Source of the DNA: Sphyrna mokarran
Lineage: Eukaryota
Direction: 5' to 3'
NCBI GenBank assembly: GCA_024679065.1
Contig: JAGIQG010000005.1
Location: 67,642,001-67,706,000, forward strand
Length of the DNA: 64,000 bases
Part shown: in pieces, positions 2,572 to 63,450 of the stretch
Position numbering within the stretch: position 1 is the first letter of the stretch
How the letters are laid out: every line of letters begins with the position of its first letter
Translations under genes and position numbers: made by a program
Notes under the pieces: generated by a model
Told to the model about the DNA's origin: nothing
The model's database searches: none
The model's input: only the letters and a program-made list of their open reading frames with translations

Positions 2572-2875
2572 CCCCTCTGGATGAAGAGTCTAGAACCAGA
2601 GGACATAAAATAAGGGGGATGCCACTTTGGAGTGAGATGAGAATTTCTTTTACTCAAGAGTATTGTGAATCTTTAGAATTCCTTACCACAAGGGACTGTG
2701 GAAGCTCGAACATGGAGTATGTTTGAAGTGAAGATTAACAGATTTTTAAATGTAATTGATGTAAAGGAATATGGGAGTAGTGTGGGGAAAGAAGACATTG
2801 AAGTGGATAATCAGCCACGATCATATTAAATGGTGCAGCAGCCTCAATGGAGTGAATGGCCTATTCATGGCTCCA
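2572..2875 (+). mobile_element. CR1 LINE 3' end, decayed
   Basis: 'tctagaaccagaggacat...gagatgagaatttctttt...gtgaatctttagaattccttacc' (SRTRGH/RNFF/VVNLWNSLP-like motifs), followed by the CR1 3' UTR 'aatggccta'. Confidence 0.8.
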
Positions 2876-3780
2876 AAGGCATCTCTCCAGCTTCATCCCT
2901 TCCCACAACGCAGCTCAATTTTACCTTATTACCTTAGAATGGTATCTATTTCAATCATGTATTTGAGAAGTGAATAGGATTGGTTACTGATTAAAAAAAA
3001 ATTCTGTGTGTAAGAAGACATTTTTACATTAATTCTTGCTATTGTACCACAAACCAAAGATGCAAGTTTGTGTCTGGGACAGAAGGAGTTTACAGTATAC
3101 AAAACATAATCTTGAATGAAAACATATGCCGGCTTTATTAAATATATAATCTGAATTGATTTTAGGATGCAGTATAGAACTATTTACAGACGTAAATGGC
3201 ATTTTGGCAATTTCCCCCAAACACATATTGGAGAAAGAGAAAGTAATAGGTACTACAAGCAGCTATTTAGAACATAATGTTTTTAATTTGCACTAGTTAC
3301 AAGAAACATTGTGATTCTGTAGTCCCACTGGTTATGATGCCAGCACGTCAGAGGCTGGTGTGTTATTTTGAATAATTTGTTATGACAGTATGTTCCTCCC
3401 AGTGACACAGAAGACACAGCAACAACTGCAGAGTTTGAAAGTCCCAAATGCAAAGTCTTTCTTAGATTTGTTCCTTCTACTGGATTTGCTTCATCATGAG
3501 GGTGAATGCACTGTAAGCAGAGGGTGACGCAAGTTTGGTTGCTGACATTGAGTGCCCTAATGCCCATTTTTAATCATAAACTCATTCAAGTATTGCATAA
3601 AATTATTTTGGTTGTTATTTTAACAAAAATATTGATTTACTCAAAATACATGGCTAATCAAAACAGATGTTCTGCTAAAACAGCAAAGAAATTTTATATC
3701 AATCTACTGAATTATTTATTACTGTTATGCAGAGTATAATTTTAATCCATTTATGTTGTTTAGCCTCCAGGGTTTACTGT

Positions 3781-3836
3781 TTTTCATTCTTTCATGGGAT
3801 GTAGGTGTTACTGGCTGGGGCCTAATTGCCCTTGAG
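3781..3836 (-). mobile_element. L2/CR1-clade LINE 3' terminus fragment
   Basis: 'ttcattctttcatgggatgtaggtgttactggctggg...cctaattgcccttgag' is reverse-complementary to the tail at 50485-50550. Confidence 0.55.
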
Positions 3837-3861
3837 TGTCAAAAATCAATCACGTGTAAAT

Positions 3862-5420
3862 ATAGAAAGTAATGGTAGGAATAAGCCATTCGACCCATTG
3901 AGCCTGCTCTGCTGCACTGATTGTGATCGTGGCTGATCATGCAACTCAGTAATCTGTTTTCTCTTTCCTATATCCACTCATTCCTGTAGCCCCGAGAGCT
4001 ATAACTAACTCTTCTTGAAAGCATACAACGTTTTGGCCTCAACCGTTTTCTGTGTTAGAGAATTCTACAGTTTATCACTTTCTGGATGAAGGAATTTTTC
4101 ATCTCAGTCCTAAATAGTTAATCCCACATCCTCAGACTGTGATCCTTGGTTCTGGATACCCCCACCACCCAGAACACAACCCTCTTGCATTACCTTGTCT
4201 AGTTCTGTTTAAATTTTATAAGTTACTATGAAGTCTCCCTTCATTCTTCCAAATATAATCCTAATTGATTCAATCTTTCCTCATATGTCAGCCCCATCAT
4301 TCCAGGAAGCAGTGTAGTAAATCTTTGCTGCATTTTCTCTATAGCAAGAATATTTTTTTTTATATCAGATACGGAAACCAAAACTGCACACAACATTCCC
4401 GATGTGATTGTACCAAGGCCCTGTATAACTATAGCAAGATATCTCTGCTCTTGTAATCAAATTCTCTCGCTATGAAGCCAACATATCATTTGTCTTCTTT
4501 ACCGTCTATTGTACCTGCATGCTTTCAGCAATTGGTTTATAAGGTCACACGGTCTCATTGCATATTCTCCTCTTTCAATTTACAGCTATTCAGATAATCT
4601 GCCTTTCTGTTTTTGCTCCCAACGTTGATAACCTCACTTATCCATCTTATACTACACCTGCCATGTATTTGCCAACTCAACTTGTGCAAATCACACTGAA
4701 CTATCTCTGCATTCTTCTATAGCTCACCCTCCTACCGAGCTTTGTGTCATTTGCAAATTTGGAGACATTATTTAATTCCCTCTTTTCATTAGCATAAATT
4801 GTGAATAGCTGGGGTCCTAACACTGATCTCTGCAGCGCCCCACTAGTCATTGCCTGTCATTTGGAAAAAGACTCATTATTCCTCCTCTTTGTTTCATGTC
4901 TGCCAACCAGTTTTTTTAATCCATCTCGAAGTACTAACTTCTGTCCTATTATGCACTTCAATTTTACTTGCTAATCTTCACATAGACTTTGTTGAAAGCC
5001 TTCTGAAAGTCCACTGGCTTGTCTTCATCAACTCTTTTAGTTATATCCTCAAAGAATTCAGTAGATGTATCAAGCATGATTTTCCTTTTGTAAATCTATG
5101 CGGACTCTGTCTGACCCTGCCACTGCTTTCCAAGTGCTCTCCTATTACAACTTTTATCATGCATTTTCTTCATTACCAATGTTAGGCTGACTGGTCTATA
5201 ATTCGCTGTTTTCTTTTAAATCATCGGGTTAAATTATTTTCCAATCTGTAGGAGCTGAGTCTGTAGAATCTCAAATGATGACCACCAACGCATCCATTAT
5301 TTCCAGGGCTACTTCCTTGAGTGCCCTGGTATGCAGATTATCAGGCTTTCGGGGCTTATCGGCCTTCAACCCAAATTTCCCTAACCCGATTCCCCTGCTA
5401 ATATTGATTTCCTTCATTTA
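3862..5420 (-). mobile_element. CR1 LINE, 5'-truncated (~1.55 kb of decayed RT ORF plus 3' UTR)
   Basis: The reverse strand shows RT-region remnants ('gtatcaagcatgattttccttt', 'aaagccttctgaaagtcca', 'tttgtgtcatttgcaaattt', 'aaaactgcacacaacattcc') and the CR1 tail 'aggaataagccattcgaccc'. Many stops and indels. Confidence 0.85.
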
Positions 5421-7876: not shown

Positions 7877-9380
7877 ATAAATGAGGATGAAAGTTTTCGG
7901 CTGTGGACTATAACACAAGTTGGCTGCTGATGAGTTCCATCTGAGACTGTCACGATGGCCAAATGAACGCTTTTATTGTTGGAACCACGCAGAAGCTGTG
8001 ATGCTCCAGAGAAAAATTGACCAATTTTTGCAGATGATGAGCGCAATGAATGTCAGTCTGAGATCCGGTGAGAGCGAACATCAAACTATACACCTTCACC
8101 ATATCAATGCACTGCAACCAGGGTTCTAACATAGTCAACAACTGCAGATCACTGAGGTGAACCTCCAAATTAGCTTGTTTACATAATTATGCCTCTTTCA
8201 GGAACCATATAAAAACAGAATGGGTTGCAATTTCATCATTAATTAAAGCATAAATTGCAATGAAAGGTTAACTTTGCAAATAATTACTGCTCCTCATATA
8301 TCATTCTCCTTTTTCAAAATCATCTTCAGTCTGATCAAAAAAAAATGCATTTGATTCATCAGTCCTCGCAAACTATTGCCTTATCTCCACCTTACCTTGG
8401 AACATTTTATCACTTTCTACATTCATGTCTATCTCTCCCTTATTTACATGCTCAGCTCTCTTCAATCAGTTTCCATCTCAACCCATAGCACTGAAACGAT
8501 GCCAACAAACACGACCAACAATATTCATCATTAGTGATCATGGGATATAATTTCTCCTTCACCCCTTTGCTTCTTGTGAGAAAGCTGATCACAACATCTT
8601 GTTCAAAAGCCTCTCCTCTGCTGTTTAACTCAGTGTAATGGCCCTCATTCAGTTTCACTCATATATCTGATTGTACCAGAGCCTGTCTACTGTTTAGGTG
8701 CTAGCAGATAAATTAAATGACATGCTGTCTTGAATAGACCACAATTTTCTTCAGCTGAACTTTGGGAAGACTGAAGTCCTTTTTAACCCATGCCAAAAGC
8801 TCTGCACACTTGCCATATTGCTTTCTCAATTGTTGGACTTATCCTATTCAAGTTTGAATTCAATCACATGATCGCCATAATACTGCCCACTCCTACCCGA
8901 GCTCAACTCCCTGGTGCTTAAGTGCATTTCCTCACCTTTGTCGCCTCCAGAATCATCTAACATGCCAATGCTCTTGCAGCCAATCTCTATCCTCCAGAAA
9001 ACATCTAACACTCTTGTTATTTCTTTTTACACATCCTTGAAGTGTCATGAAACATTTTTCTTCAACATTAAAGATTATTGAAAATTCCAAAACTCCAGCA
9101 CAAATGTATTTTTAAATATAGCCAATCTGATACTCGTCCCTAACCTTAATAATACCCCAGAAAATCAAACTAACCTGCATAAACGTGCCTGCAATTAATC
9201 ATTTCCCCACAAATTAAGATGCCATCTTTTTTCTAACCAAGATGCATTTTGCAGAGTGCTGTAAGAGCTGCACTAATAAATGAATGCATTTTTTAATTCA
9301 TAGAACATAAGTGAAAGTTTGCATTATGTAAACAAATTTTGCACTGTAATCACAGCAACCACATGAAATATAATTATTAC

Positions 9381-9680
9381 CATCTTCATCTGTTTGAATG
9401 ACAACCTCTTCACTCTCCTTCCTTCCTTCTGGATTTGTCAGAATCATCTTGATACTGATGTTTGTATAAGGTGGCAGGTGTTGAATAATAAGCTGAGGTG
9501 CTTTTTGATCCATTTCCATGCACTCTGCTTTGCTTTGGTTGTGACCGAAATAATGGTAGCACACTGTGACGTTGAATGTATGACACCTTGTGACATTGTA
9601 GCCCAAAGACTCCAATTCAACAGCAAGTTGTCTGGCATGTATCTCTGCAATTTTCAGGCTTTTTGGTGACCTCATTGGTT
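9381..9680 (-). CDS. PTPRK: Internal coding exon of receptor-type tyrosine-protein phosphatase kappa (fibronectin type III repeat; corresponds to human exon 8)
   Basis: Translation (E)[99 protein letters not shown](V) closely matches PTPRK as recalled ([44 protein letters not shown]...[24 protein letters not shown]). Acceptor 'ttattttccctgaatag|AACCAATG' (AG at 9682-9681) and donor 'GAAGATG|gtaataat' (GT at 9380-9379). 300 bp, phase 1-1. Confidence 0.95.
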
Positions 9681-10231
9681 CTATTCAGGGAAAATAAGAA
9701 ACAATTTTATAAATTGTAGATTGACATAAATTAAAATATTTTCACTATTGTAACATCTAACATACATTTTAACTGGCAAACGTAAAAATAAACTTAATCC
9801 TAGAAGCTGCTGAAGAAAGTCTTCTCCGAGAATCTCAGCAACTTGCTTGCACCCATAACAAAAACAGGAAAATATAAGGAAGCAATTTATCTAGAGGGAA
9901 ATGTATAAATCATAAAAATTATTCTTTCATCTGGTCTTTCCAGCACACAATGGTTCTAACAGACAAAGAACCTTGTGTAAGCATGTTCCCCATGAATGTT
10001 ACTTCCCACTGGACTGCCAGATTGAAGAATTACTATTATTGCATTTGAACATCTCATTAACAGACTGTAGTGACTTTGAAATTTGGAATTGTGCAGCTAA
10101 ACAGAATAGAATGGAATCAAACCCAAAGTGTTTTTCAATGAAATTTCATTGTAGAACCAACGTCATTAAGTTTAAAAAGAATGAAGGGGTTAAAATCAGT
10201 AAGGATAGGAGATTTTCCCTAAGAAATTTGT

Positions 10232-25525: not shown

Positions 25526-25842
25526 TAGCAATTTGGGCCCTAATTGACCTGTCTGGCAGGTTTTAAGACAGGCCTTTCACCATAGCTCTGCATGATTCAT
25601 TATGGGATATGTGGTAAGATATGGGACAGTGAAAAATAATAAATACACGATTGAGAAATGAGACAAGAGATAGGAGAGAATATTAGTATTTGTAATGTTA
25701 TTTGACTGTGCCTAAGGACCATTGTGACAGACTCAGCTTTTAAACCAGCACATTGCTTTGGTGTGAATGTATACTTCATTTATGTAGCTGACTTAAAAAT
25801 CTTCAATTGGGGATTTGTCCAATCCTGTCTGAATTTACATTA

Positions 25843-26464
25843 CAGTAAGAAGTCTCACAGCACCAGGTTAAAGTCCAACAATTTTATTTGGTAGTAATCG
25901 CCACTAGCATTCAGGGTTTGCCCTTTTGTCAGGTGAGTGGGAGTTCTGATCACAAATAGGGCATATAAAAATACACACAGTTTACAGAATACTGATTAGA
26001 ATGAGAGTCTTTACAGCTAACCAAGTCTTAAAGATGCAGACAATGTGAGTGCAGATAGCATTAAGCATAAGTTAAAGAGATGTGTATTGTCTCCAGACAG
26101 GAGAGTAAATGGGATGTTATAAGCACAGGTAAGTCAGGGATTACAGATAGTGTGTCATGAACCCAAGATCCCAGTTGAGGCCATCCTCATGTGTGCGGAA
26201 CTTGGCTATCAGTTTGTGCTCAGCGACTCTGCGCTGTTGTGTGTCATGAAGGTCGCCTTGGAGAATGTTTACCCAAACATCAAAGGCCAAATGCCCACGA
26301 CCGCTGAAGTGTTCGCCAACAGGAAGGGAGCAGTCGTGCCTGGTTATTGTCGAGCTGTGTCCATTCATCCATTGTCGTAGCATCTGCATGGTCTCTCTAA
26401 CGTACCATTGATGAAGACTTCTTACTGAGTTTACCCCAGCCCAATGCCGGCATCTCACATCATG
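25843..26464 (-). mobile_element. Penelope-like element 3' end (GIY-YIG C-terminus plus pseudo-LTR) with a short inverted pLTR piece
   Basis: ORF 26141-26458 reads LRQWMNGH...SLPVGEHFS..GH......ILQG.L.DTQQRRVAEHKLIAKFRTHEDGLN.D.GF, the Penelope GIY-YIG C-terminus. pLTR at 25843-25950. 'agacttcttactg' at 26415-26427 is the exact reverse complement of 25843-25855. Confidence 0.85.
25902..25935 (-). ncRNA. Minimal type I hammerhead ribozyme motif (degenerate) in Penelope pLTR
   Basis: The minus strand reads CAC-CTGACAA-A-AGGG-caaa-CCCT-GAAT-GC-TA-GTG: stem I CAC/GTG and a perfect 4-bp stem II. The core has two substitutions relative to CUGANGA/GAAA. Confidence 0.6.
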
Positions 26465-30599: not shown

Positions 30600-33410
30600 T
30601 GGCAAAGTCCCTAGTTGGAGTGGACTAGGGCAAAGTATTCAAGAATAAATAGAGTGCTTACAATAAAACAGCAACAATAATTGTGGATAATTTCAACCTA
30701 CACATAAACTGGAGAAATTAGATTGGCAATAGTAGACTGGATAAGTTCACAAATTGATCTTGAGATGGTTTTCAGAGCAACATATTCTGGAACCAACCAC
30801 AGCAGGTAATTTTAGATTTAGGATCTGATTTTAACATCGGGTTGTGCCTGTTTTCGGGTATAAAAGCTTGGTAAAGTTAAGAATGAAGCGAGTAGCACAA
30901 TCCGCACCTGCCTCCATGTCAGTCCTCCCTTTACCAAGGCCTGAAAATGGCCGCGATTGGGACCATTAAATGCATTTAAATTGACTTAATGGGCTGTAGG
31001 GCCAACCTTACTGCACTTCCCCCTTTAACACCATATTTGTCCATCAGAATCGGTGCAAAAGAGACATGCTCTACGAAAGTCCAAAGTCCAGTTTGGGCAC
31101 TCCAGTTAGTGAGGAGGTAAGTGCCAAGCATCCAACTGTTTGACTCAGGAGGGGTTGGTAGTGGGTGGGTGTGTGTGAGGTGGGGGGGGAACGGTTGGGG
31201 TCCACTGCCACTCTGCCTGAGATCAATGAGGGGGAAAGGGGAGAGACCACAATTGGTCTGGGTGGCAGAGGGGGTGGGGGGGATAAAGGGTTCAGTAATT
31301 TTGTAGAGATGGGGCAATGTTTGTGAGGGCTGAGGGGAGGCGTTATCCAGTCCAGAAGTGATGTACCAAGGGAGTCATCTTCTATCACTTGCTTTTCTAT
31401 ACGTGTGCAGTTGGAGGCACCAATTGAAGCTACAGGATTTCAGACATATTAAGCCCCACATACAGGCTTCTGCAGCGTGATTTGGAATTGCTAATATCTT
31501 TTCAGGCAGAGTGCATATGGGGGCGCCTAAGAACAGATTTCAAAGTCGGATCTGAAACACTCCACATTTGAAAGTCGTCCAGTACTTAGAACCAAAATGG
31601 TAAAATAGGGCCCTTGGACATCTGTAATGTGCAGGATTAATTTAATGACCTCAGGATATAGACACTTCTAAGTAGCAGCAACCACAATAGGATTGAAATT
31701 TACATCCAGGTTGAAATGGAGAAGAGTAAGTCTAAGACTAGTATTTTAAACTTCAACAAGGGCAACTGTGTGTGCATGAAAGGTAAGCTAGCTGGAGTGA
31801 ACTGGCTAGAGGATTAGATCAATAGGGAAACAACGGAAGGCATTTAAGGAGATACGTAATTAGCATACATATATTCCCACTATAAACAAACATTCTAAAG
31901 GAAGGAGCCACTGTCCGTGATTAGCTAAAGTACTTGAGGAAAGCATCAAACTTAAGAGGGAAAGAAAGGATATAATTGCACTAAGATGAGTGGCAGGTCA
32001 GATGATTAGCAGGAATATAAAGAACAGCAGAGAATGCCAAAAAAGTTAATCAGAAGAAAGAAATTAAAGTACAAGAGGAAGTTAGCGAGAAATATAAAAA
32101 CAGATAGCAAGAGTTTCTGCAGGTATCTAGAAAGGAAAAAAAGAATAAGTGAAATGTGTGCTGATCCTCTGGAGAGCTAAGACGGAGAGTAAATGGTAGA
32201 CTATAAGGAAATGGTAAATTAAATCAACAGATACTTTGCATTTGTATTCACTACAGAGAATACAAAAAATCTCTATTAACAGAAAATTGGGAGATGGGAA
32301 GGTGAGAGAAACTTGGTGAAATTACAATCACTAGGAAAGCTATAATGAGCAAAGTGATAGAACTGCATGCGGGCTGACAAGTCTCTGGACTTGTCAGCCT
32401 AGGGTCTTTAAAAATGTGGTTTAATGAGTTTATATAAGCGTGGTATTAATTTTCCAAAATTCATTTGTTTCTTGAATGAATCCCTTACATTGGAAAGTAG
32501 TAAATCTAATCCTGTATTCAAGAAGAGAGTGAAGCAGGAAACAGTAAATTAATGGCCAGGTAGCTTGACATCTGTTGAAGGCAGGTTTTGAAATTTATCA
32601 TTAAAGAGGTTATGGCTGGGTGCTTATCTAAGCTCATTGGAAAGAATCAGCATGATTTTATGAAAGGTAAATCATGGTTAATCAATTTACTCAAATTTTC
32701 CGAGAGTAACATGTTGTAGATAGAGGAAAGCCAGCAGACGTACTGTACTTGGATTTCCAGAAAGTATTTGCTAAGGTGTCAAATGCAAGATTATTGCAAA
32801 AGATAAAAGCTTTGTGGTGTAGGGGGTAATATATTAGCCTGGACTGAAGATTGGCTTGCTGACAGCAAACAAAAATGCAAAAGTGAGTTTTTTTCCTGAT
32901 ATGGCGAGTGGCGTCCTGCAGGTTATATGTTGGGACCTCAACTTTTTACACTATACATCAATGACTTAGATGAGGGGAGTGAAGGTATGGTAACTAAATT
33001 TTCAGATGACACAAAGATAGGTAAATAGGAAAGCATGTTGTGAAGAAGGCAGCTGGAACTTGTAGAAAGACATAGGTTGAGTGAGGGGGAAAAATCTGTC
33101 AGATGGAGCTTAATATGGGAAAATGTAAAATTGTTCGCTTTAGCAGGAAGAATAAAAAAAAATCATTACTTAAGTGAAGAATGACTGCAGAATTCTGAGG
33201 TGCAGTGATTTAGGTGGTCTTGAGCATGACTAACAAAAAGTTAGTATGTAACTACAGCATGTAATCAAGAAGGCTAATGGAATGCTATCCTTTATTAAGT
33301 GATGAATTCAACTTAAAAGTAAGAATGTTGTGCTTCAGTCATACAGGATATTGTTGAGATTTCATCTCAAATACTGCATGCAGTTTTGGTCTCCTTATTT
33401 CAGAGGAGTT
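30600..33410 (+). mobile_element. CR1 LINE, long decayed ORF2 fragment (EN to RT), split by a MITE
   Basis: 'gataatttcaaccta' (GDFN-like), 'aatcagcatgatttt', 'tacttggatttccagaaagtatttg', 'tacatcaatgacttagatga...aaattttcagatgacacaaag' (YINDLD...KFSDDTK), 'cagttttggtctccttat'. Confidence 0.85.
30821..31613. mobile_element. MITE/non-autonomous DNA transposon inserted into CR1
   Basis: Termini 'ggatctgattttaac' and 'gtaaaatagggccc' are imperfect inverted repeats. CR1 sequence resumes on both sides. G-rich interior. Confidence 0.6.
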
Positions 33411-33559
33411 TTAGTAAATTGTGTAGCCTGATAGGTATTCATAAAGACATCAGTAAAATCTGTGGGAGCAGCAAAGAACAGGATATGCAACCTTGGAACA
33501 AACGTAGGGAGTGATTAGAAAGTGGCTGTTGCTATGCCTTAAACAGACGATGATTAAAA

Positions 33560-33845
33560 TCCCTATGCTGCAGAGGAAGACCAATCAGCCCAGCGAGTCG
33601 CGTGGACCCTCCAAAAGAGCATTCTACCTAGCCCCACTCCCTGCCCTATCTCTATAATCCCATGCATTGATCATGGTCAATGCACGTAGCCTGCACATCA
33701 GTGGACAATGAGGGGAAACCCAGTGGAAATTCATACAAACGTGGCAGAACATGTGAACTTCACACAGATAGTTATCAGAGGCTGGAATCGAACCTGGGTC
33801 CCTGGTGCAGTGAGACAGCAGCATGAACCACTGTGCCACTGTGAT
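33560..33845 (-). mobile_element. HE1-type V-SINE
   Basis: 'gctggaatcgaacctgggtccctggtgcagtgagacagcagcatgaaccactgtgccac' is the reverse complement of the tRNA head. V domain and tail are present. Confidence 0.85.
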
Positions 33846-34334
33846 TGAACACAGATCCCTATACATTGTGTCCCTGAGAGAATTACAAACCCCTGACAGA
33901 GGCAAGACTCTCAGTATTCATGACCAAAAATATAATGATTTGTCTTTGGAGTATCTAACTGGAAAAACGATCAGTACCAATAGGATCGCTATAATGAGAA
34001 GAGACATATCGGCAGCAGTAATTTGGGATTAATCACTGTAGAAGCAAAACTTAGATATCAGAATGAAACTTAGTAGCAAGGAATCTGATCAGTTTGGATA
34101 TTTTATGAAGTTTGATACCTTTTGAATACCTGTTTGTATAAGGGAGTGGGTCAAAGCTTGGTGACTTTGTAACAAAGTCAGTCAGAGATTAGTTATTTTG
34201 TATGTAAAGACAAAGGTCAAATAGCAGAAACATGACTTACGCAGTTTAATGATTTTTTTAAATTCTTCCTGCCAAAGAGAACAAATTTACATTTTCTCAT
34301 ATTCTGCACCAAATCTCTGACAGAGCTTCTTACC

Positions 34335-34558: not shown

Positions 34559-35007
34559 ATTCATGCAGCTTTCCAGAACTGAAGAAAACTTCGAAATTGA
34601 AGGATATTTGATGTATAATTTTATCTGATAAGAGGCCGTATCTGTGCCATGGAGATGTGAGGAGTTTGACGAGATTCTTCATTTTGATTTCAGTGAATTC
34701 AGTTAGGGTATAATAAACTGATAAGACTGGTTGAGTGAAGCAGCAAAGAGACTGTAACAGCTTTGCATCTGAAGTAGCTTGTAGCTTTCTGGATGGTTCA
34801 TAGCTTCTTAGTAATCAAGTAGTAAAGTCAGAGCTGAACCTGAAAATAAGTATATGGTAGATCTATCATCCACAAGGCAGTCTGAGATTAGGAACTGGTA
34901 TTCAGCACATGATCAAGTTGGCAAGGGGAAGAATAACTAGCTGTATGGAAAAAAAGGACATTTGCATTAATCTTCTGATAGTACAGAATTGAGAATTCCT
35001 AACAGAT

Positions 35008-35139
35008 TTGTCAAAACTTCCTATCTTGCATTCATCAGAAAACTTTGCAAGAATACCAGCATCAGCTCCATAAACTATTTTCCTCTTATCGCTACTCTTG
35101 CAAGATGTCCTGATGAGTGCAAGGAGAAAAACTTCAACA
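35008..35139. repeat. Fold-back mini-element: ~50-bp inverted arms each carrying a hammerhead-like motif
   Basis: Left arm 35008-35057 reverse-complements to 'ggtattcttgcaaagttttCTGATGAatgcaagataggaagttttgacaa'. Right arm 35091-35139 reads 'gctactcttgcaagatgtcCTGATGAgtgcaaggaGAAAaacTTCaaca'. Confidence 0.75.
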
Positions 35140-37174
35140 GGCTTTTTCAGCAATATTCAGTTAATATTGTTGAAATTCTGGAAACAATAAACTTGTTTGC
35201 AGCTTGAAATCATAGCAGCTTTTGAATTTGAAAACCAAAGGGATTTTCTGATGTTTTAAGCAACAATGCAGAAGTTGCAAGGAAACTCATACTTGAGTTA
35301 TGTAATTCAGAGTCTTAAGGTCAATAGAGAAATTGGAAGGTTGCCGAGCCAAAAGTTAATGGAAAGAGCACAATGAAATCTCATACCCAATCTAATGGCT
35401 GAAACAATGAAGGGAAATAAGCAGTCTGGAATTTTTTGAGTCACTGGGAATGGGGTATGATGTTTGAGTCAATCCCAGGAAAAATAAGTGAAACTTAAAG
35501 ATTTCAAAAGGAATGAAAAATCTTCGTGGGAAATAGAAAATAGAGCTGAGTTATAGCAAAAGTTTTTATAGAGTGTCAAGTTAAGAGTGATTATTTAATT
35601 ATTTTTACATATATAATAAATTTTCCTTTGGTTTAAAAATGTGAATTCTTATGGTGTGGTTCTCTCAGTTAATTGTTGGGTGTTTTGGTTTCTTCTTTAC
35701 AGTTTCGTGGTCCCTAATAGGGTTGCAACAGTACATAAACCAGCAGACTGTGTGTCATAGTATATTGATTTATGTTGTGTGACATACGATATATTAGCAT
35801 GGCCATTGTCATGACAAGTAAATAAAGCAAACTGTGTCAGCAATATATTAGATTGAGTTACTTACACACTTGTAAATCAGGCGACACAATTACATAATAA
35901 ATTCTATTTATTTCCCTATTTAAAGCCCAGAAGATGCAGATCGGAGGACAGTAGGGAAGACAAATTGCAAAAGCTACATGTGTTATTAGTTGGATAAATG
36001 GGGGCCAGTGGACTAAATAGTAATTTGGAGGATTGAATTTGAAAGCAGGAACCAGAGTAAGAGAATAATGCAGATACAACCATCTCCAAGGAGGAGGAAA
36101 AGATTGCAGGATGCTAACATATTTGTAACGACTGACCCTGGTGTTTGTGAGCACTGGGAATGGGGTACCATGTTTGTTAATGGGGGATTGCAATTCCAGA
36201 TAGAAACAATGCTGGACATGAGGTCGGAAAGATGCAGGACAAATCAAAAGATCGTAATACTGGAAGGAAGGTGACATTAACAATGCAATTGCTAGGGAGG
36301 CAGAAACACGAATGCTTTAGCAGTTACTTATGGAAGAAACAGAGTGAAATGTCTTGACTAACTGGAGTGCGTCCTGTCATGGTGGTGGCTGGTCCACATT
36401 TCATTCCTTTTCACCTCGAGAATTTAAGATTAAGAGAAAGTTGTAAAGGAAATAAACAAAATGTCATGTCTTTATACTTGGCCAAAGAATTACAACTTCT
36501 GATTTATCTTCATTATTCATAGCCACCTTAGCTTAATATTAAACAGCAACAAGAAAGTATTTTCAACGTGAAAGGGAATCTCTTATTAACTCTTTGCTTC
36601 ATGCAAATAGAGAATCTTTTCCTTCCAGTTTTAGTTTGCGAGGAGAGGGCCAAAACCAACTGCTTAAAATGCTGAACAGCAAGAATAATTAGAATTTTCT
36701 CTTTGTAATACTGGAGTAATTGGTGACCCCAGCTTTGAACAACAACTGTTATTTATTTAAATAACTATACATATATACAGAGTGCTGGGATCTGCTCTGA
36801 ACTTTTACAACTCCAGGATTGATTTTGTCTGGGAATGCCTGAGCTCAGCGCTTCTGGATTTACACAACCTTTCAAAATTTCACCCCTTCAAGGGGCTTGC
36901 ATACACTTTTGTTTTCTAAAGCAAGTCATGCAATCAAGCTTCTCTGTGAAGTGAATTCTTAGTTGCTTCTCCTCTCTGCTATTTATGCTAGGTTCCCATG
37001 CCAAAGGCATGAGCAGCCCTGTATTTCCCTGTTTAAAGGATCATTCTTTAAGTGTGAGCTTCCATAGTAAATGTTGATAAACCATTCAAATATCACAGGC
37101 AACACAGCCAGAACTGATCTGTCCTTACCAGATGTGGAGAGGTGAATCATTCAGTTTATATGCAGAACTGGAGA

Positions 37175-44179: not shown

Positions 44180-44490
44180 GACATAGGACATTACAGCACA
44201 ATACAGGCCCTTCAGTCCTTGATGTTGTGCCAAACTGTGAAACCAATCTAAAGCCCATCTAACCTATACTATTCCAATATCATACATTTGCTTATTCAAT
44301 GACCATTTAAACACCCTTAATGTTGGTGAGTCCACTACTGTTGCAGACAGGACATTCCACATCCTTACTCTCTCTGTGTAAAGAATCTAACTCCGACATT
44401 TATCTAATGTCTATCACCCCTCAATTTAAAGCTATGTCTTCTCTTGCTAACCATCCCCACTGAGGAAAAAGGTTCACACTGTCTACCCTA
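44180..44490 (-). mobile_element. CR1 3' end
   Basis: 'acattacagcacaatacaggcccttcagtccttgatgttgtgccaa' is the near reverse complement of the young CR1 tail at 52653-52700. 'tttaaagctatgtcttctcttgcta' matches reverse-strand ASTRGHSFK. Confidence 0.85.
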
Positions 44491-44799
44491 AACAGCAGGC
44501 TTTCTCTTGCTACTTTTAGCAATAATGGCCCATGGAAGAAATATTGTCAGTCATTTAGATTTCACCAAATGACTTAAATATGAAGGTAGTGTGAACTGTG
44601 TGTGCAGATCTGAACTAAGTTAATGGTTGTACGTTAAATTGTCAACAAAAATGAACAGAGTTGGAATTAAGTGGATAAAGTTTTTGACTGGGGAGAAAAT
44701 AAGAGGCATTATCTTTTCACTGGGTAGGATGAACACAAATAAGTGTCTGTACAAAAAGAGACGCAGACTGGCAATGGAATGAAAACAAAGAGGGAATAC

Positions 44800-44997
44800 T
44801 TGTATCTACATCATACTTCACATCATCAACAATACTTCAAGAAATGAATGACGCACTGTGATTTCTGTCATCCAAGTTTATCCTTTTAATGTCAGCATGA
44901 CCAAGAGATGAATATTGGTTTGGACATCTAGAGAACTCGCTGCCTTTCCTTCAATACTGTTGTGGGGCTTTTAATGTTAACATGAACAGACAGATGA
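44800..44997 (-). mobile_element. Deu-type SINE fragment
   Basis: 'gatgaatattggtttggacatctagagaactcgctgcctttccttcaatactgttgtggggcttttaatgttaacatgaacagacagatg' resembles the reverse complement of the Deu domain. Confidence 0.5.
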
Positions 44998-46299
44998 AGA
45001 CTAAGAAAGACTGAAGACAGGGATTGGACTAGAGGCAACTATTTAAAGACGTGAGGAGGCTTGGGATGGCAGTCCATTGAGTGGAGCATCAGATCAAATA
45101 TGGCAGAGATAAAATTGGTTGTCAGTCATAATAGTAGCACAGGGCTACAGAGAAACTCTTTTTCAAGATTAAGTTATAATTCAGAATTCATACAGAGAGC
45201 AAAATCTAAATGACTTACATTTTTCCTTCCATCCTCCATTATTCTTACAAATAACAAAGAAAAAGCCTGATCTTTGACAGATAGTTCCTATCAAACAATT
45301 CTTTAGTGATTTTTTTCTTCTCAATTTTGGTGTGCTTTTAATTGAGAACACCAAGGTTTGGTGACCTTGCTTCAATTCTCTTCTCCACTCCCTGCCATCA
45401 TGAATTCATTCAGTGTTATCGTCAAGCAAGTCTTAAATGTACATTATAGATTTGTATGAAAATGATATCAATCTGTAAATAAAGATGGATAACCATGTCA
45501 TCTCATGTATCCTGTGAATGTTGGTGGCTCATATTGAATCACGATTGTACTTTTAATTAATGCAAATGCAATAAAATTTCAACATACAGATGCTGAAGCC
45601 AATACAGGGTTTGACTTAATTAACTTTGAAACTCACCCACACTAATTTTATTGCTAAACTATGAGCATATATCAGTGATTGTAATATCATAACATTTATA
45701 CCTATGTCTATCCAATGCAGCGGCCTGAACATAAGTTATCCACAGCTACTACACATTTCCTGCATAAACTAACTGTTCCTGCTTACACTGAAATGAGGAG
45801 CATTGCTTCAAATGTAAAATAATGAGTTACATGTTACCCACAGGCCTGAGCGCATGCCGAACAATTATTTGTATGTGATATGCAGAATCTGGCCAACACG
45901 AGATAATATTATTTCATGCATCTTACTCTAACTGCGCCCAAGTTAGAAGGTGATTGATGTCACCTGTTGAGCCTGACAAATACATTTTTGAAAGGTACAT
46001 CAATAATTGGTAATTTTCTGAGTGCACACTGGTGGAAGTCTTCCCTGAAAATATTCCAAAATGGAAAAATGCTCCCAGAATTTTCTAATATGTGCTTTGG
46101 TAGGCATCATACTATCTTAATCGCACATGATCCAAAAATTGGTCTCCTATTCTTTATGGTAGAAAGAAAATAGCATTTTTTCCAATATTCATGTGGCATA
46201 CTGTGAAGCAGGCTTGTGTATGTGCGCGCACATGTACGTGCAAGACTAATTTAATTAAATTGCAGTCAGCCTGCAAGGCTTAAATCTTCAAAAGGATGT

Positions 46300-48339: not shown

Positions 48340-48821
48340 GGCTGGATTTTCACATCCTCTGGCTCGGCAACAGCCCGGCAAGAATCACTGCTGCTCCCCA
48401 CTAACGCAGATTGATAGCCACTGCCATGACAGAGTCAGGAGAGTGGAGTCATGGGGAGAGGGGAGGGCGGGGTGTCACCAAAGAGGATCATAAATGGGAT
48501 CCACTGGTAGGGCCACAATGCCGGTGACCTTTGTTTTGGGAGGCAAGGGATGGTGGACGCAAGGGTGTGGAAACATTCCTTAAATGAGAAAGGGTGGTGG
48601 GAGGTGAATCCGCAATTTTAATTTGAGATCAGATATCTTTTAAAAATGTCTGATCTCTGTGAAGTGGGCTTACCACGGTGTTTAGACTCTGCTCCTCACA
48701 GAATCGATGCAAAACCCACTCTCCCAAAAAACCATAGTGATCTGATTGGTGCCCGCATGAACTGCACGAATTACATTAGTTTGCTTGCCAAAATTACAGT
48801 TTTTTTGAGGAAATTCCACCC
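48340..48821. mobile_element. MITE-like element
   Basis: Imperfect TIRs 'ggctggattttc' and 'gaaattccaccc', with a G-rich interior. Confidence 0.5.
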
Positions 48822-50211
48822 AATTCTTGTTTTCTGACTCCTCGTTCAAATACATTGGACAGCGTAAAGCTCCTGTACTTAGATGATAGATACAAACCAC
48901 ACACAGCTAGGGCTTGTCCATTTCAAGGACACGCTAAGTCTTAATCACAGTCAAATAACCTGACACAAAGTAAATTTATACAAGAGAGGAATTTCATTGC
49001 TCGTCGTGTAAAACATGTTGACTGTACTTTCTCTTACATTTTGTCTTTTATCCCCTGTCTAAATGCAATCTTTCTTTCCCCCTCTTCATTTTATTTGATG
49101 TACCATTATAATTAACATTTTCTTCTTCAGACGCTCCATTTTATTAACAATCCTTCAGATTATAGTACTGTTCATATATGTCACAAATGCAGGCACTGTG
49201 TCATATATAAACATTCCGGAATTTAAACTGGCTAGGCCAAGTCTAATGATAGATTAAATTTTGGCCTAAGTAATTATTTGATTTGAGCAAAGCATCAACA
49301 TCCTTTTGAACCACCTTCTTCACCATGCTACAGGAGTTAGTGAATGGTATCCAAGTCACATACAGCAGAAGATAATGCAAGAGAGTTAGAAAGGGGAAAT
49401 CTATTACTGATTGTGATAAATTGTATCATGATTTGATTAGTTTTAAAACAATTTGGATGAAATACTGCCTTCCAATAGCAAGCTGTTTTATGAATACAAA
49501 ATAGAGCAAAAAGGACTTTCCATGACAACTGTCAATGCCTTCCATTTCAGGGACATTGAAATATGACTAAAAGGCTTATTTTATTCAACCTGAAATGGTC
49601 AGTTTTTCTCAAGATATAATTTACATGCAATTAAATTACAAAATCTTTGAAGCCTACAAAGACATCCAGAGGACTTCAGAAACTACAAGAATATGGAGAC
49701 TGATTTACAGTAGGTTCAATCTAAAAATCAAACTTTGATTCTGCAATGTGTGCCTGCAGCAAGCAGGCTCTTCCAATTCACTGAGATAAAGGGTGAGTCA
49801 TCAAGTGTTCTTTTCATGTTCAAGTTGATTCAGTAGTGTAGAATTGACACCACACTATTTTATACTGCTTTCTGACTTAATCAAGATGATACTTTGGCCA
49901 AAAGACTTAGAATGTCCTTGAAATGGATAAGCCCTAGCTGTGTGTGGTTTGTATCTGAGTACAGGAGCTTTATGCTATCTGATGTATTTGAACGAGGAGC
50001 CAGGAAACAAAATTTGGATGGAATTTCCTCAAAAAACTGCAATTTCGGTGAGCAAACTGACCTAATTCATGCAGTTCATGCTGGAATCAATCAGATCACT
50101 ACGTTTTTTTTAAGGAAGTGAGTTTTGCATTGATTCTCTGAGGGGTGAGGTCTAAACACAGTGGTAAGCCCACTTCACAGAGATCAGACATCATTTTTAA
50201 AAGATATCTGA
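48629..50211. repeat. Inverted repeat: arms 48629-48942 and 49902-50211 (~310 bp), spacer ~960 bp
   Basis: The arms align by eye along their length, e.g. 'tgtctgatctctgtgaagtgggcttaccac' vs 'gtggtaagcccacttcacagagatcagaca'. ORFs 48646(+) and 50099(-) share MSDLCEVGLP. Confidence 0.95.
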
Positions 50212-51690: not shown

Positions 51691-51880
51691 CTATGGTGAG
51701 GTGACCAGAACTGCACACACAGATCACTGATCAGTGATTTATGTAACCAGAGCAAAGTTTTTTTCCTCATAAGTATTATAACTCATTAGTTCCAAATGTT
51801 AGTATCCCATTAAAAAAATAGAAAATGCTGGAAAATCTCAGCAGGTCTGACAGCATCTGTGGAGAAAGAATAGAGCCGAC

Positions 51881-52708
51881 TTGGACAAGTTGCAGAGCTG
51901 GGCCGAGAGGTGGCAAATGGAGTTTAATGTGGAAAAGTGTGAGGTAATTCACTTTGGCAGGAATAACAAATGTGTCGAGTATAGGGCTAATGGTAGGACT
52001 CTTAATAGTGTTGATGAACAGAGGGATCTTGGTGTATGTGTGCATAGATCCCTGAAAGTTGGCAATCAAGTCGATAAGGTTGTTAAGAAGGCATACGGAG
52101 TCTTAGCTTTTATTGGTAGGGGGATTGAATTTCGGAGCCGCAACGTCATGTTGCAACTGTACAAAACTCTAGTGCGGCCGCACTTGGAGTATTGTGTGCA
52201 GTTCTGGTCCCCACATTATAAGAAAGATGTGGAGGCATTGGAGAGGGTACAGAGGAGGTTTACCAGGATGTTGCCTGGTATGGAGGGCAGGTCTTATGAA
52301 GAGAGGCTGAGGGATTTGAGGTTGTTTTCGTTAGAAAGAAGGCGGCTAAGAGGAGACCTTATTGAAACATATAAGATGATTAGAGGTTTAGATAGGGTGG
52401 ACAGTGATAGCCTTTTTCCTAGGATGGAGAAAGCTAGCACGAGGGGACATAGCTTTAAATTAAGGGGTGGTGGTTTTAGGACAGATGTCAGAGGTAGGTT
52501 CTTTACGCAGAGGGTGGTAAGGGTATGGAATGCCTTGCCTGCGTCAGTTGTAGATGCGCCAAGTTTGGTGGCGTATACGAGGTTAGTAGATAAGTTTATG
52601 GATGAAAGGGGAATGGTTTAGGTTAGAGGGTCACTGCTTGTTCCTAATTGGTTGGCGCAACATCAAAGGCTGAAGGGCCTGTTCTGCGCTGTAATGTTCT
52701 ATGTTCTA
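51881..52708 (+). mobile_element. Young 5'-truncated CR1 LINE with intact ORF2 C-terminus (246 aa)
   Basis: Uninterrupted ORF 51881-52621 (WAERWQMEFNVEKCEVIHFG...YKTLVRPHLEYCVQFWSPHY...RVWNALP), retained CpGs, 3' UTR with (ATGTTCT)n tail, and AC duplicated at both ends. Confidence 0.95.
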
Positions 52709-52742
52709 ACGTTTCCGGTCAGGAAAACCCTTCATCAGAGCT
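52709..52742 (-). ncRNA. Minimal type I hammerhead motif with intact core, interrupted by the CR1 insertion
   Basis: The minus strand reads AGCT-CTGATGA-A-GGGT-tttcctg-ACCG-GAAA-CG-T. The remainder (C-GGCT) lies at 51878-51874, on the other side of the CR1. Confidence 0.65.
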
Positions 52743-53462
52743 AAATGCAAAAAGAATCAGCAGAGATTTATACAACGGGGGGAGTGCTGTGAAATGGGAT
52801 AAAGAGTATGTAAATAAGGATATAGAAGGCTGAGATGGTGCTAAAAATGTCCAGTAAGTGATCAGAATGCATGAATGGTAGAACTGAGACACAGATGAAT
52901 GAGGAACAGCCTTGTGATTATGACAGTTACTTTGAAAGGGGGGAGGCAGGGGAGGAGAGAGGTGATGATTGGGGCAGGGGAAGGACAGCTGAAATGGAGA
53001 AGTGGAAAAAGAGGTGAGAAAGAAGGATGATAAAATGGTTGATTGAGATGAACCAAGCTGAAATAAATGGAAATGAAGTGAAGGTGGAGGAGAGAGTTTG
53101 TGCTCTGAAGTTGTTCAGTCTAGAAGACTGTGAAGTTCAATACTGAATTCAACAACTTCAGATCATGAACTCTCTCCTCCATTATCTGATTTATTTTATT
53201 TCATCTGATTCCTCCATTTTCTAATCTTGCTTTCTCACTTCCATTTTTTCACTTCTTTCCTCATTCTCCCTTTCTCCCTCCCTTCCAGGGCAACTGCCAT
53301 ATTCCCCAGGCAGTCCCTTATCCAACTGTATCTCTGTTCTGCCATTCGCGCATTCTGATCATTTAATGGACACTTTTAGCACTTTTCTCAGCCTTGCATA
53401 TCCCCATTTAATTCCTTTTATCCCATTCCACCAGCCTACACTCAATGATTCTGTTTGCACTC

Positions 53463-53501
53463 AGTTCTAAAGAAGAGTAACCTAGACTCGAAACATTAGC
53501 T
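53463..53501 (+). ncRNA. Minimal type I hammerhead motif (degenerate)
   Basis: AGTT-CTAAAGA-A-GAGT-aacctag-ACTC-GAAA-CA-TT-AGCT: stems I and II pair, with one core substitution (CTA for CTG). Confidence 0.6.
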
Positions 53502-54323
53502 CCATTCTCTCCCCACAGAGTCTGTCAGACCTGCTGAGAATTTCCAGCATTCATGTTTTTGTTTCATAATACAGCATCTGCAGTATTCTGCTTTTATCTT
53601 AATATTCTATTAGTCATTCTGATTAATTTTGGAGTTGGCTACCATATTTTAGTGATTGGATAATGTGGACCCCCTAAATATGTTTGCACCTTCAATATTT
53701 CCTAGCTTTTCATCCCTTAAAATATATTGGATCTAACCTCTTTAGGGTCAAAATGGACAATCCCAGGTTCATCTGTGTTCAAATCCATCATTCATAATTT
53801 TACTCAATCACGTGATATATCAATGAGTCTTTGTAATGTTATGATAAATATGCCAGGCTGTACAGTCATTACAAAGAAAAAGAAGATTGAATAATGAGAG
53901 AGGGGGAAGAAAGGCAATTACTGGAGTAGAAAGAAATGATTTCAGTAAAGGTGATCAGACATTGGAAGCATTATGAGATTAAACAAGACAAATGGTAATT
54001 CTACAGATGTCAAACTTTGAACTACAGTGAAACCAAGACAACAATTTAAATAACTAGACTTTTCCCACCTTGCAATTTTAGAACAATCTATTTTACAAAG
54101 GAGGCAATTTAATTGCATTTCTCCACCATTTACGAATTGGCATTTCTAGCTCTGTCAAGAAATGCCAAAAATTGATAAAATGTTAATTGGATTTAAATAC
54201 TTGTTGTCTGGATATATTATTTTGTAAGAATTACATTTCGCTGTCTAGACAGTGCTCTGTAGCACTGTTGTATTTGCATATTGGATATGAATTAAATCCT
54301 CTGCAAACATTTAAGATTAGCAA

Positions 54324-62219: not shown

Positions 62220-62305
62220 CTATGCTTCTGGAGGTACTTAACACTCAGTCTCTCAGAAGTATAAACTTTTGTAAGACTGAGTGTTAAATACCTTTAGAAG
62301 CATAG
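62220..62305. repeat. 86-bp near-perfect palindrome/hairpin (40-bp arms)
   Basis: ctatgcttctggaggtacttaacactcagtctctcagaag-tataaa-cttttgtaagactgagtgttaaatacctttagaagcatag. Confidence 0.9.
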
Positions 62306-62836: not shown

Positions 62837-63450
62837 AAGCGGCCAAGAGCATTCAGCCTCCAACCTTCGAGTAATCATTCTTCAAGGCGGCCTTCAAGAT
62901 ATAAAACAAAGCAGAATCACCAAGCAAAAGCTAATATACACGTTCTGGACTCATGATGAAGGCATTAACCATAATCTTAGGTCTATGTAACTCCATCACA
63001 CTATTTGGTGCGGGAAAAATCTCCGACTGTTCTGTTTTCACCCCATACTTACCTTGCCTGTGGGTGATAATCTCTCTACCTGAATTAGTTTGTGTTGTGT
63101 TCAACAACATCTCATTGATTGTTTGTAATTATCTTTCTTCTTAAATTTTCAGTTATAAGCCCATCCCTTCACTTGTTATACAGCCTGTCGACATTTCACA
63201 TGGTGATTCTACTTAATTGCCTGCAATTCGCTATTTCGCGATTACTTGTAAAGACTGGTTATTTCAGCCGGCCTATATTGTTTGCACTTAATCTTTGACA
63301 CTCATGGTTACCTGTTAGTGTTGAGCTTCTGTCACTCCACTTATATATTCTGTGCCTGTGCACTTTACTCTACTTCACCCGACAAAGGAACAGGGCTTCA
63401 AAAACGTGAGATTTTAAATAAACCTGTTGGACTATAACCTGGTGTTGTGT
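62837..63450 (+). mobile_element. Penelope-like element 3' end (GIY-YIG C-terminus plus pLTR with decayed hammerhead)
   Basis: SGQEHSASNLRVIILQGGLQDIKQSRITKQKLIYTFWTHDEGIN parallels ORF 26141-26458. pLTR 'cacccgacaaaggaacagggcttcaaaaacgtg...aaataaacctgttggactataacctggtgttgtg'. Confidence 0.8.

Follow-up and report, generated by a model that had tools for sequence, protein, structure and literature searches.

The inverted repeat at positions 35008-35140 of the window, by which we mean the whole 64,000-nucleotide stretch of Sphyrna mokarran DNA analysed here, is probably what remains of a single Penelope-like (PLE) retrotransposition in a cartilaginous-fish intron, its pieces joined head to head. 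The element extends over approximately 34976-35162 (~187 bp), is asymmetric and has a linker of ~11 nt. It appears to be composed of two unequal, 5'-truncated ends of one repeat family, placed head to head with their 3' ends outward. We have good confidence that this family behaves as a PLE end, and it probably belongs to an autonomous PLE family.

In the proposed course of events, the parent would be a dispersed repeat whose last ~100 nt hold a TATA-like box, a minimal hammerhead and a 3' stretch of ~45 nt, arranged as in a pseudo-LTR. The parent hammerhead would have a stem I of 4-5 bp, a stem II of 2 bp and an AAGCUU palindrome pairing between two RNA copies. The PLE reverse transcriptase/GIY-YIG endonuclease would nick the target, and only the final 80-95 nt of the RNA would be copied, twice over, either once per target strand or by self-priming; the truncated cDNAs would then be joined 5' to 5' via a short linker. 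The palindrome would be a by-product of integration, formed anew at each site, and not a replicating unit. In the parent, multimeric or read-through RNA is most likely processed by the ribozyme acting as a dimer of two copies of the same sense, and both ribozymes here would have decayed neutrally after insertion. We infer the PLE enzymes, the priming route, the promoter, the cleavage activity and the autonomy of the parent. Priming on both target strands is proposed because the anole PLE protein cleaves and extends both strands (PMC11167929); the purified protein is further described there as starting at two internal sites, with ribozyme cleavage unneeded in vitro. The literature offers self-priming on an antisense template as the alternative (PMC3846280).

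Many PLE insertions include a 5'-truncated copy in inverted orientation, together with a tail on one side only (PMC8557442, PMC3846280, PMC8969392), and head-to-head is described as their most frequent arrangement (PMC3846280). In the accounts of complex EN+ PLE insertions (Arkhipova et al. 2013, PMC3846280; Craig et al. 2021, PMC8557442), we find the same head-to-head arms with 3' ends outward, the same unequal 5' truncation, one longer 3' arm, and a hammerhead with a TATA-like box. In contrast, the pieces here are <100 nt, without an ORF and without a visible TSD, and their 3' ends differ by ~13 nt, compared with a described tail of 30-40 nt (PMC8557442, PMC3846280). The kinship with PLEs suggested in the preliminary description agrees with both the form of the ribozyme and the head-to-head truncated arms. 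Alone, the locus matters little, since this copy is dead and the architecture has already been described for PLEs. The family's very short head-to-head insertions, in their hundreds, would reveal the start points of PLE reverse transcription and the way in which inverted junctions form, which the literature still leaves open (PMC8557442, PMC11167929).

Structure and ends of the element

The two arms, 35008-35055 read on the minus strand and 35093-35140 on the plus strand, are identical at 32 of 48 positions without gaps, and each carries a CTGATGA box (35038, minus; 35110, plus). Their score was reached by 6 of 2000 dinucleotide shuffles and at 3 of 1276 window positions, namely the element itself and two other hairpins. 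The predicted fold had a z-score of -3.13 on the plus strand (1 of 200 shuffles) and -3.41 on the minus strand (0 of 200). These statistics rule out chance; the two inverted arms described earlier, each with its CTGATGA, are real, and the right-arm string and left-arm ending quoted there are exact to the letter. The 33-bp spacer does not hold: the gap between the matching arms is 37 nt and mostly family sequence, and both arms extend further outward.

Between the arms, 14 differences are transitions and 2 are transversions, and strand bias is absent (9 versus 5, p 0.42); as expected, the pattern fits neutral decay. On the minus strand, the RNA is predicted to form one long stem by way of G-U pairs (-45.2 kcal/mol), and the host exon lies on this strand as well. 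The hairpin might have been retained because its intronic RNA has a function, for instance in giving rise to small RNAs or in being edited. We regard this as barely credible: the G-U bias is not significant by the same comparison of arm differences, the left half is less conserved than the flanks across orthologs, and an Rfam search of the window (E up to 5) gave six matches, none at the palindrome and none a hammerhead.

The extent of the element was read from its relatives. Contigs of four runs (X1, X2, X3 and X7, of 12 runs listed) were aligned to 34601-35500 at 80% likeness; X1 may be the window's own source, and the independent runs are X2, X3 and X7. No RNA data set was listed as carrying the sequence, which is uninformative about expression. 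According to the position map and the relatives' departures, the left arm (35008-35058, minus), a dead hammerhead with its leader, is 5'-truncated at 35058. Among the loose ends listed, 26-31 contigs in each run depart behind 35058 into a common continuation, and 31-51 contigs per run depart before 35096, where they carry that continuation in reverse complement (compared by eye). Since relatives leave at 35058 into a shared interior, most of the supposed spacer is explained. Downstream of the ribozyme, the left arm has a 3' extension (34976-35007, minus) that is ~9 nt shorter than in relatives on a partly by-eye comparison. A 17-nt motif seen behind 35159 in relatives has a single match in the window, at 34974-34990 (minus) with 3 mismatches; 0.34 such matches are expected by chance window-wide, and the position is the telling part.

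Homology of the right arm begins at 35070-35078, compared with the left arm's end at 35058. By exclusion, a junction linker of ~11 nt (35059-35069), whose bounds are uncertain by several bases, would join the two 5' ends. The 5' part of the right arm (35070-35105, plus) appears to be decayed family interior with a U-rich leader, and a TATA-like remnant lies near 35070-35074. Ungapped paralog pieces cover it: those at 35078-35134 (X2 record 11, X3 record 18) have 10 differences in 57 positions and no gaps, and that at 35082-35139 (X7 record 26) begins within the supposed spacer. Among the loose ends listed, the consensus has TTTATA on the plus strand in three of the four runs, and this TATA-like box is a putative promoter.

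The decayed minimal type I hammerhead of the right arm (35106-35139, plus) was delimited by the position map and the depth of relatives. It is followed by a 3' extension with small deletions (35140-35162, plus), in which similarity to relatives ends ~13 nt sooner than in the left arm. Paralog pieces reach 35154-35163 with 0-7 gap letters, and the loose ends listed lie behind 35139, 35140 and 35159. The family sequence continues ~45 nt downstream of the cleavage site, after which relatives diverge. Overall, the right arm is the longer one on the 5' side and the left arm on the 3' side, with inner ends at different points of the family sequence.

At the right-hand junction lies a small terminal hairpin (35145-35175) with a 13-bp stem and one mismatch, a structure of which 64 kb holds six distinct examples. 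It may be a fold-back of the end or chance, and its stem is weakened in orthologs because they have C at 35165. A search for TSDs, which are optional in PLEs, gave three weak candidates, none of them at the inferred ends; the insertion is old, and no empty site was seen. This bears on whether the locus is a MITE or another DNA-transposon relic whose terminal inverted repeats resemble a hammerhead by accident. Such a relic would likewise be short, non-coding, present in high copy number and built of inverted arms. However, the ends are asymmetric, no TSD is seen, relatives have no fixed two-armed interior in common, and the part most shared among them is the ribozyme core with palindrome and stem I. 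A DNA-transposon origin is accordingly very improbable.

The repeat family and its hammerhead

Between 559 and 848 records aligned per run, from 10.6-27.9 million, nearly all of them on the arms. In X1, summed depth over 35111-35140 was 28099 compared with 15.3 in the flanks, a depth that is not a copy number. The arms are covered by hundreds of distinct contigs, indicating a multi-copy family. Relatives carry G at 35131 in 59-63% of the depth in all four runs (A>G, 74-90 contigs per run), the other ~40% being not G. Left-arm loose ends that precede 35023 terminate with AAGCTTTTC (plus strand) in the three runs listed, X1, X3 and X7 (22-27 contigs each), and show both decay products of the CpG at 35012-35013. 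The contig pile-up, the G at 35131 and these loose ends bear out the earlier proposal of a multi-copy family with a minimal type I hammerhead and a palindromic stem III.

The same data support a putative ancestor with GAAA, the AAGCTT palindrome, a UUC triplet and the GACA strand of stem I. The reconstructed consensus has the CUGANGA and GAAA boxes, U16.1-H17 and stem I, and its segment 15.1-16.1 is palindromic (AAGCTT). In the ancestral sequence proposed in the preliminary description, GAAA-AGCTTC-GACA is recovered from relatives, whereas the 2-bp stem II with C11.1 stays conjectural. This stem rests on the comparison of arm with arm, because positions 11.1-11.2 are not among the rows listed; pair 10.1/11.1 is G/A in the right arm and A/T in the left, and CpG decay would account for an original C11.1. 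If confirmed, a hammerhead with an apparent 2-bp stem II would offer a cheap test of the minimum size of a dimer-dependent ribozyme.

The preliminary description had viewed the locus as a 130-bp ORF-less fold-back element with its own spacer, transcribed and mobilised whole and carrying a ribozyme on each strand. The motif does occur in both arms, no ORF link to the family was found, and vertebrates have non-autonomous hammerhead repeats derived from pLTRs (bioRxiv 10.64898/2026.07.22.740005). Three single contigs from two runs are indeed two-armed. However, all three join left to right arm at different places (35038>35107, 35055>35098 and 35057>35106), the linker is not common to relatives, which exit at 35058, and the arms are unequal at both ends. 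Two-armed copies amount to at least these three contigs; short contigs break in repeats, so under-counting is possible. Relatives also pass the outer ends into unrelated flank, and the repeated unit appears to be a single arm rather than the 130-bp palindrome. We consider mobilisation as a two-armed unit improbable.

The predicted folds also argue against such a unit. On both strands, each ribozyme core is predicted to pair with the opposite arm. In either transcript, one sense ribozyme would be paired to the antisense arm, so that fold-back would be expected to suppress cleavage. A dimer needs two same-sense copies, and an inverted pair could therefore not supply a cis dimer under the dimer model outlined in PMC4209133. 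This predicted pairing, which would lock each ribozyme to the other arm, does not support a fold-back that serves cleavage.

Judged from their letters, both ribozymes of this copy are broken, in agreement with the earlier view of a decayed copy. In the right arm, the 5' strand of stem I (35106-35109), the core (35110-35116), GAAA (35126-35129) and a cleavage site after 35135 can be placed, and stem II has 2 bp with a GCAAG loop. Its lesions are a G10.1 opposite A, a stem III palindrome broken at 35131 and an A-C at pair 1.1-2.1. In the left arm, the core (35038-35032) is intact; AGGA stands at 12-15.1 instead of GAAA, 10.1 is A, 17 is T, stem I retains three of four pairs and stem III is non-palindromic. 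A descriptor scan of the window found no intact minimal hammerhead.

The hammerheads found in pseudo-LTRs of PLEs (Cervera and de la Pena 2014, PMC4209133) resemble the present ones in their CUGAUGA and GAAA boxes, in a short stem I, in a palindromic stem III suited to dimers and in a U-rich leader; most occur singly, and some form opposite-strand pairs. Such pairs of minimal hammerheads are reported 100-700 bp apart (PMC4209133), and an opposite-strand ribozyme copy at the 5' end of an element is described (PMC4209133 and supplement). The consensus given in that supplement comprises a U-rich leader, CUGANGA and GAAAN-palindrome-NUH. Stem II has 2 bp here, compared with 3-8 bp in rows of the supplementary table, and the extra base after A9 that is common in that table is absent. 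Stems II of 2 bp are common among other natural hammerheads (PMC3088659).

Non-LTR retrozymes of metazoans (Cervera and de la Pena 2020, PMC7229834; Li et al. 2026, 10.64898/2026.07.22.740005) are, like this locus, non-coding, bear a type I hammerhead and show kinship to PLE pLTRs; they are reported in a chondrichthyan genome. The retrozymes described there are direct tandem repeats, which yield circular RNA (PMC7229834, PMC6765202, PMC6155905). In contrast, this locus holds an inverted pair only, with no direct tandem hammerhead repeats, a difference that also weighs against the two-armed unit.

The hammerhead lies in the terminal repeat of the family and is oriented to its 3' end. A tblastn search with 271 PLE-like proteins, many of them N-terminally incomplete and all found via a sister family, detected no PLE ORF remnant near the palindrome, in line with the earlier statement that none is adjacent. 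The ATG after stem I was considered as a PLE ORF start; its peptide occurs in 0 of the 271 proteins, which is a weak test. A shark PLE protein used as query matched three distant plant-metagenome loci and none in viral contigs. Exact-pattern scans of viral, metagenome and prokaryote collections gave no matches, as expected for shark DNA. The family might instead have no autonomous parent and be an old ORF-less cartilaginous-fish ribozyme retroelement that uses PLE enzymes, with a dimer-active hammerhead that would be among the smallest natural ones of vertebrates (~34 nt), a 2-bp stem II and a 6-bp intermolecular stem III, some two-armed copies perhaps being re-mobilised. We think this unlikely; if it is true that no ORF-bearing parent exists, the family would be a SINE-like PLE partner in sharks.

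Lunse et al. (PMC5785218) reportedly studied minimal type I hammerheads of PLE pseudo-LTRs. We found no account of the present family in the literature searched; Lunse et al. or the supplements of the preprint 10.64898/2026.07.22.740005 may list it.

Orthologous site and host intron

The site is occupied in three other runs (X2, X3 and X7). Their orthologous flanks differ by ~4-9% and continue on one side into the left arm, over its outer 25 nt, and on the other into the right arm. As the orthologs carry parts of the insertion, it predates the splits among X2, X3 and X7. At the 80% threshold, the ortholog alignment halts at 35000 in all three runs and resumes at 35070, 35088 and 35099; X7 has 97 letters where the window has 98. 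The mismatch over 35001-35069, for which local hypermutation, a template switch or replacement may be considered, is unexplained. An inversion between the arms is an unlikely cause, as no reverse-strand piece is among those listed for X7 record 25.

This pattern is relevant to a stepwise origin, in which one arm was inserted first and its mirror was added afterwards, whether through template switching, through an inverted duplication or through a second insertion next to the first. PLEs tend to insert beside earlier copies (PMC6765202), and the inner left arm fails to align to the three orthologs while the flanks align, which would fit an event in one lineage. However, 3 of 3 orthologs contain the left arm's outer 25 nt. 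The left arm also keeps the family letter at 35017 and 35012, where the right arm is mutated (35131 and 35136), and outruns the right arm's end by ~13 nt. The family letters and this overhang show that the left arm was not copied from the decayed right arm. We regard a stepwise origin as decidedly improbable and favor a single PLE insertion.

In the host sequence, a frame at 9370-9600 (minus) resembles receptor tyrosine phosphatase mu (E 1.6e-21), within an exon at 9298-9684 (minus). We take this exon to be that of the paralogue PTPRK. The palindrome probably sits in an intron upstream of this minus-strand exon. A search for more host exons matched 0 of 21 minus-strand frames to Pfam, an insensitive test that also missed the phosphatase exon itself.

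Other relics in the window

The relic at 25842-26460 (minus) is a 5'-truncated Penelope with a GIY-YIG end and a pLTR that has a decayed hammerhead before its 3' end. Its GIY-YIG remnant (26144-26410, minus) gave 12 hits among 24 candidates, 11 of the 12 at 62-76% identity, and the named hits are shark proteins (66-76% identity). At the 5' break, 26415-26427, stands a 13-nt inverted copy of the relic's own 3' end, telling by position only (E 0.33 alone). By eye, the relic has a 10-nt motif in common with the 3' end of the palindrome family. Residues 1-15 of protein P0001 match an antisense frame of the GIY-YIG region (26189-26233, plus), which suggests that P0001 may have been called across an inverted junction of this Penelope family.

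Two further relics, at 62838-63449 and 532-602, have the same Penelope 3' end, and the former includes a GIY-YIG remnant at 62838-62987. Kinship between 34976-35000 and 579-602 was considered: 21 of 25 positions match, as in 11 of 20000 random draws, and the same test fails at the other two of three tails. Part of the match may derive from a collapsed ribozyme that belongs to the other family, and we take it as a hint only.

At 51824-53551, a LINE interrupts a longer fold-back whose hammerhead relics point outward. The orientation of its inverted hammerhead-bearing ends is the same as in the present element, whose ribozyme sequence differs and whose arms are much shorter; comparison thus upholds the preliminary remark that the palindrome is unlike the other hammerhead relics of the window. 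The LINE piece, presumably CR1, has an open frame of 256 aa at ~51877-52700. Within the same relic, a central hairpin at 53085-53181 has sub-threshold Rfam microRNA matches.

Further inverted structures were observed. The one at 48629-50211 is DNA-transposon-like, with inverted arms of ~315 bp at 84% identity, and that at 62220-62305 has 41-bp arms, 85% complementary, around a 4-nt loop, with no hammerhead box seen. Pairs of inverted 65-78-bp sequences, separated by 0.7-1.1 kb, occur at 33095-34324, 44490-45275 and 2804-3943; the pair at 33095-34324 brackets LINE sequence and may represent two opposite LINE fragments.
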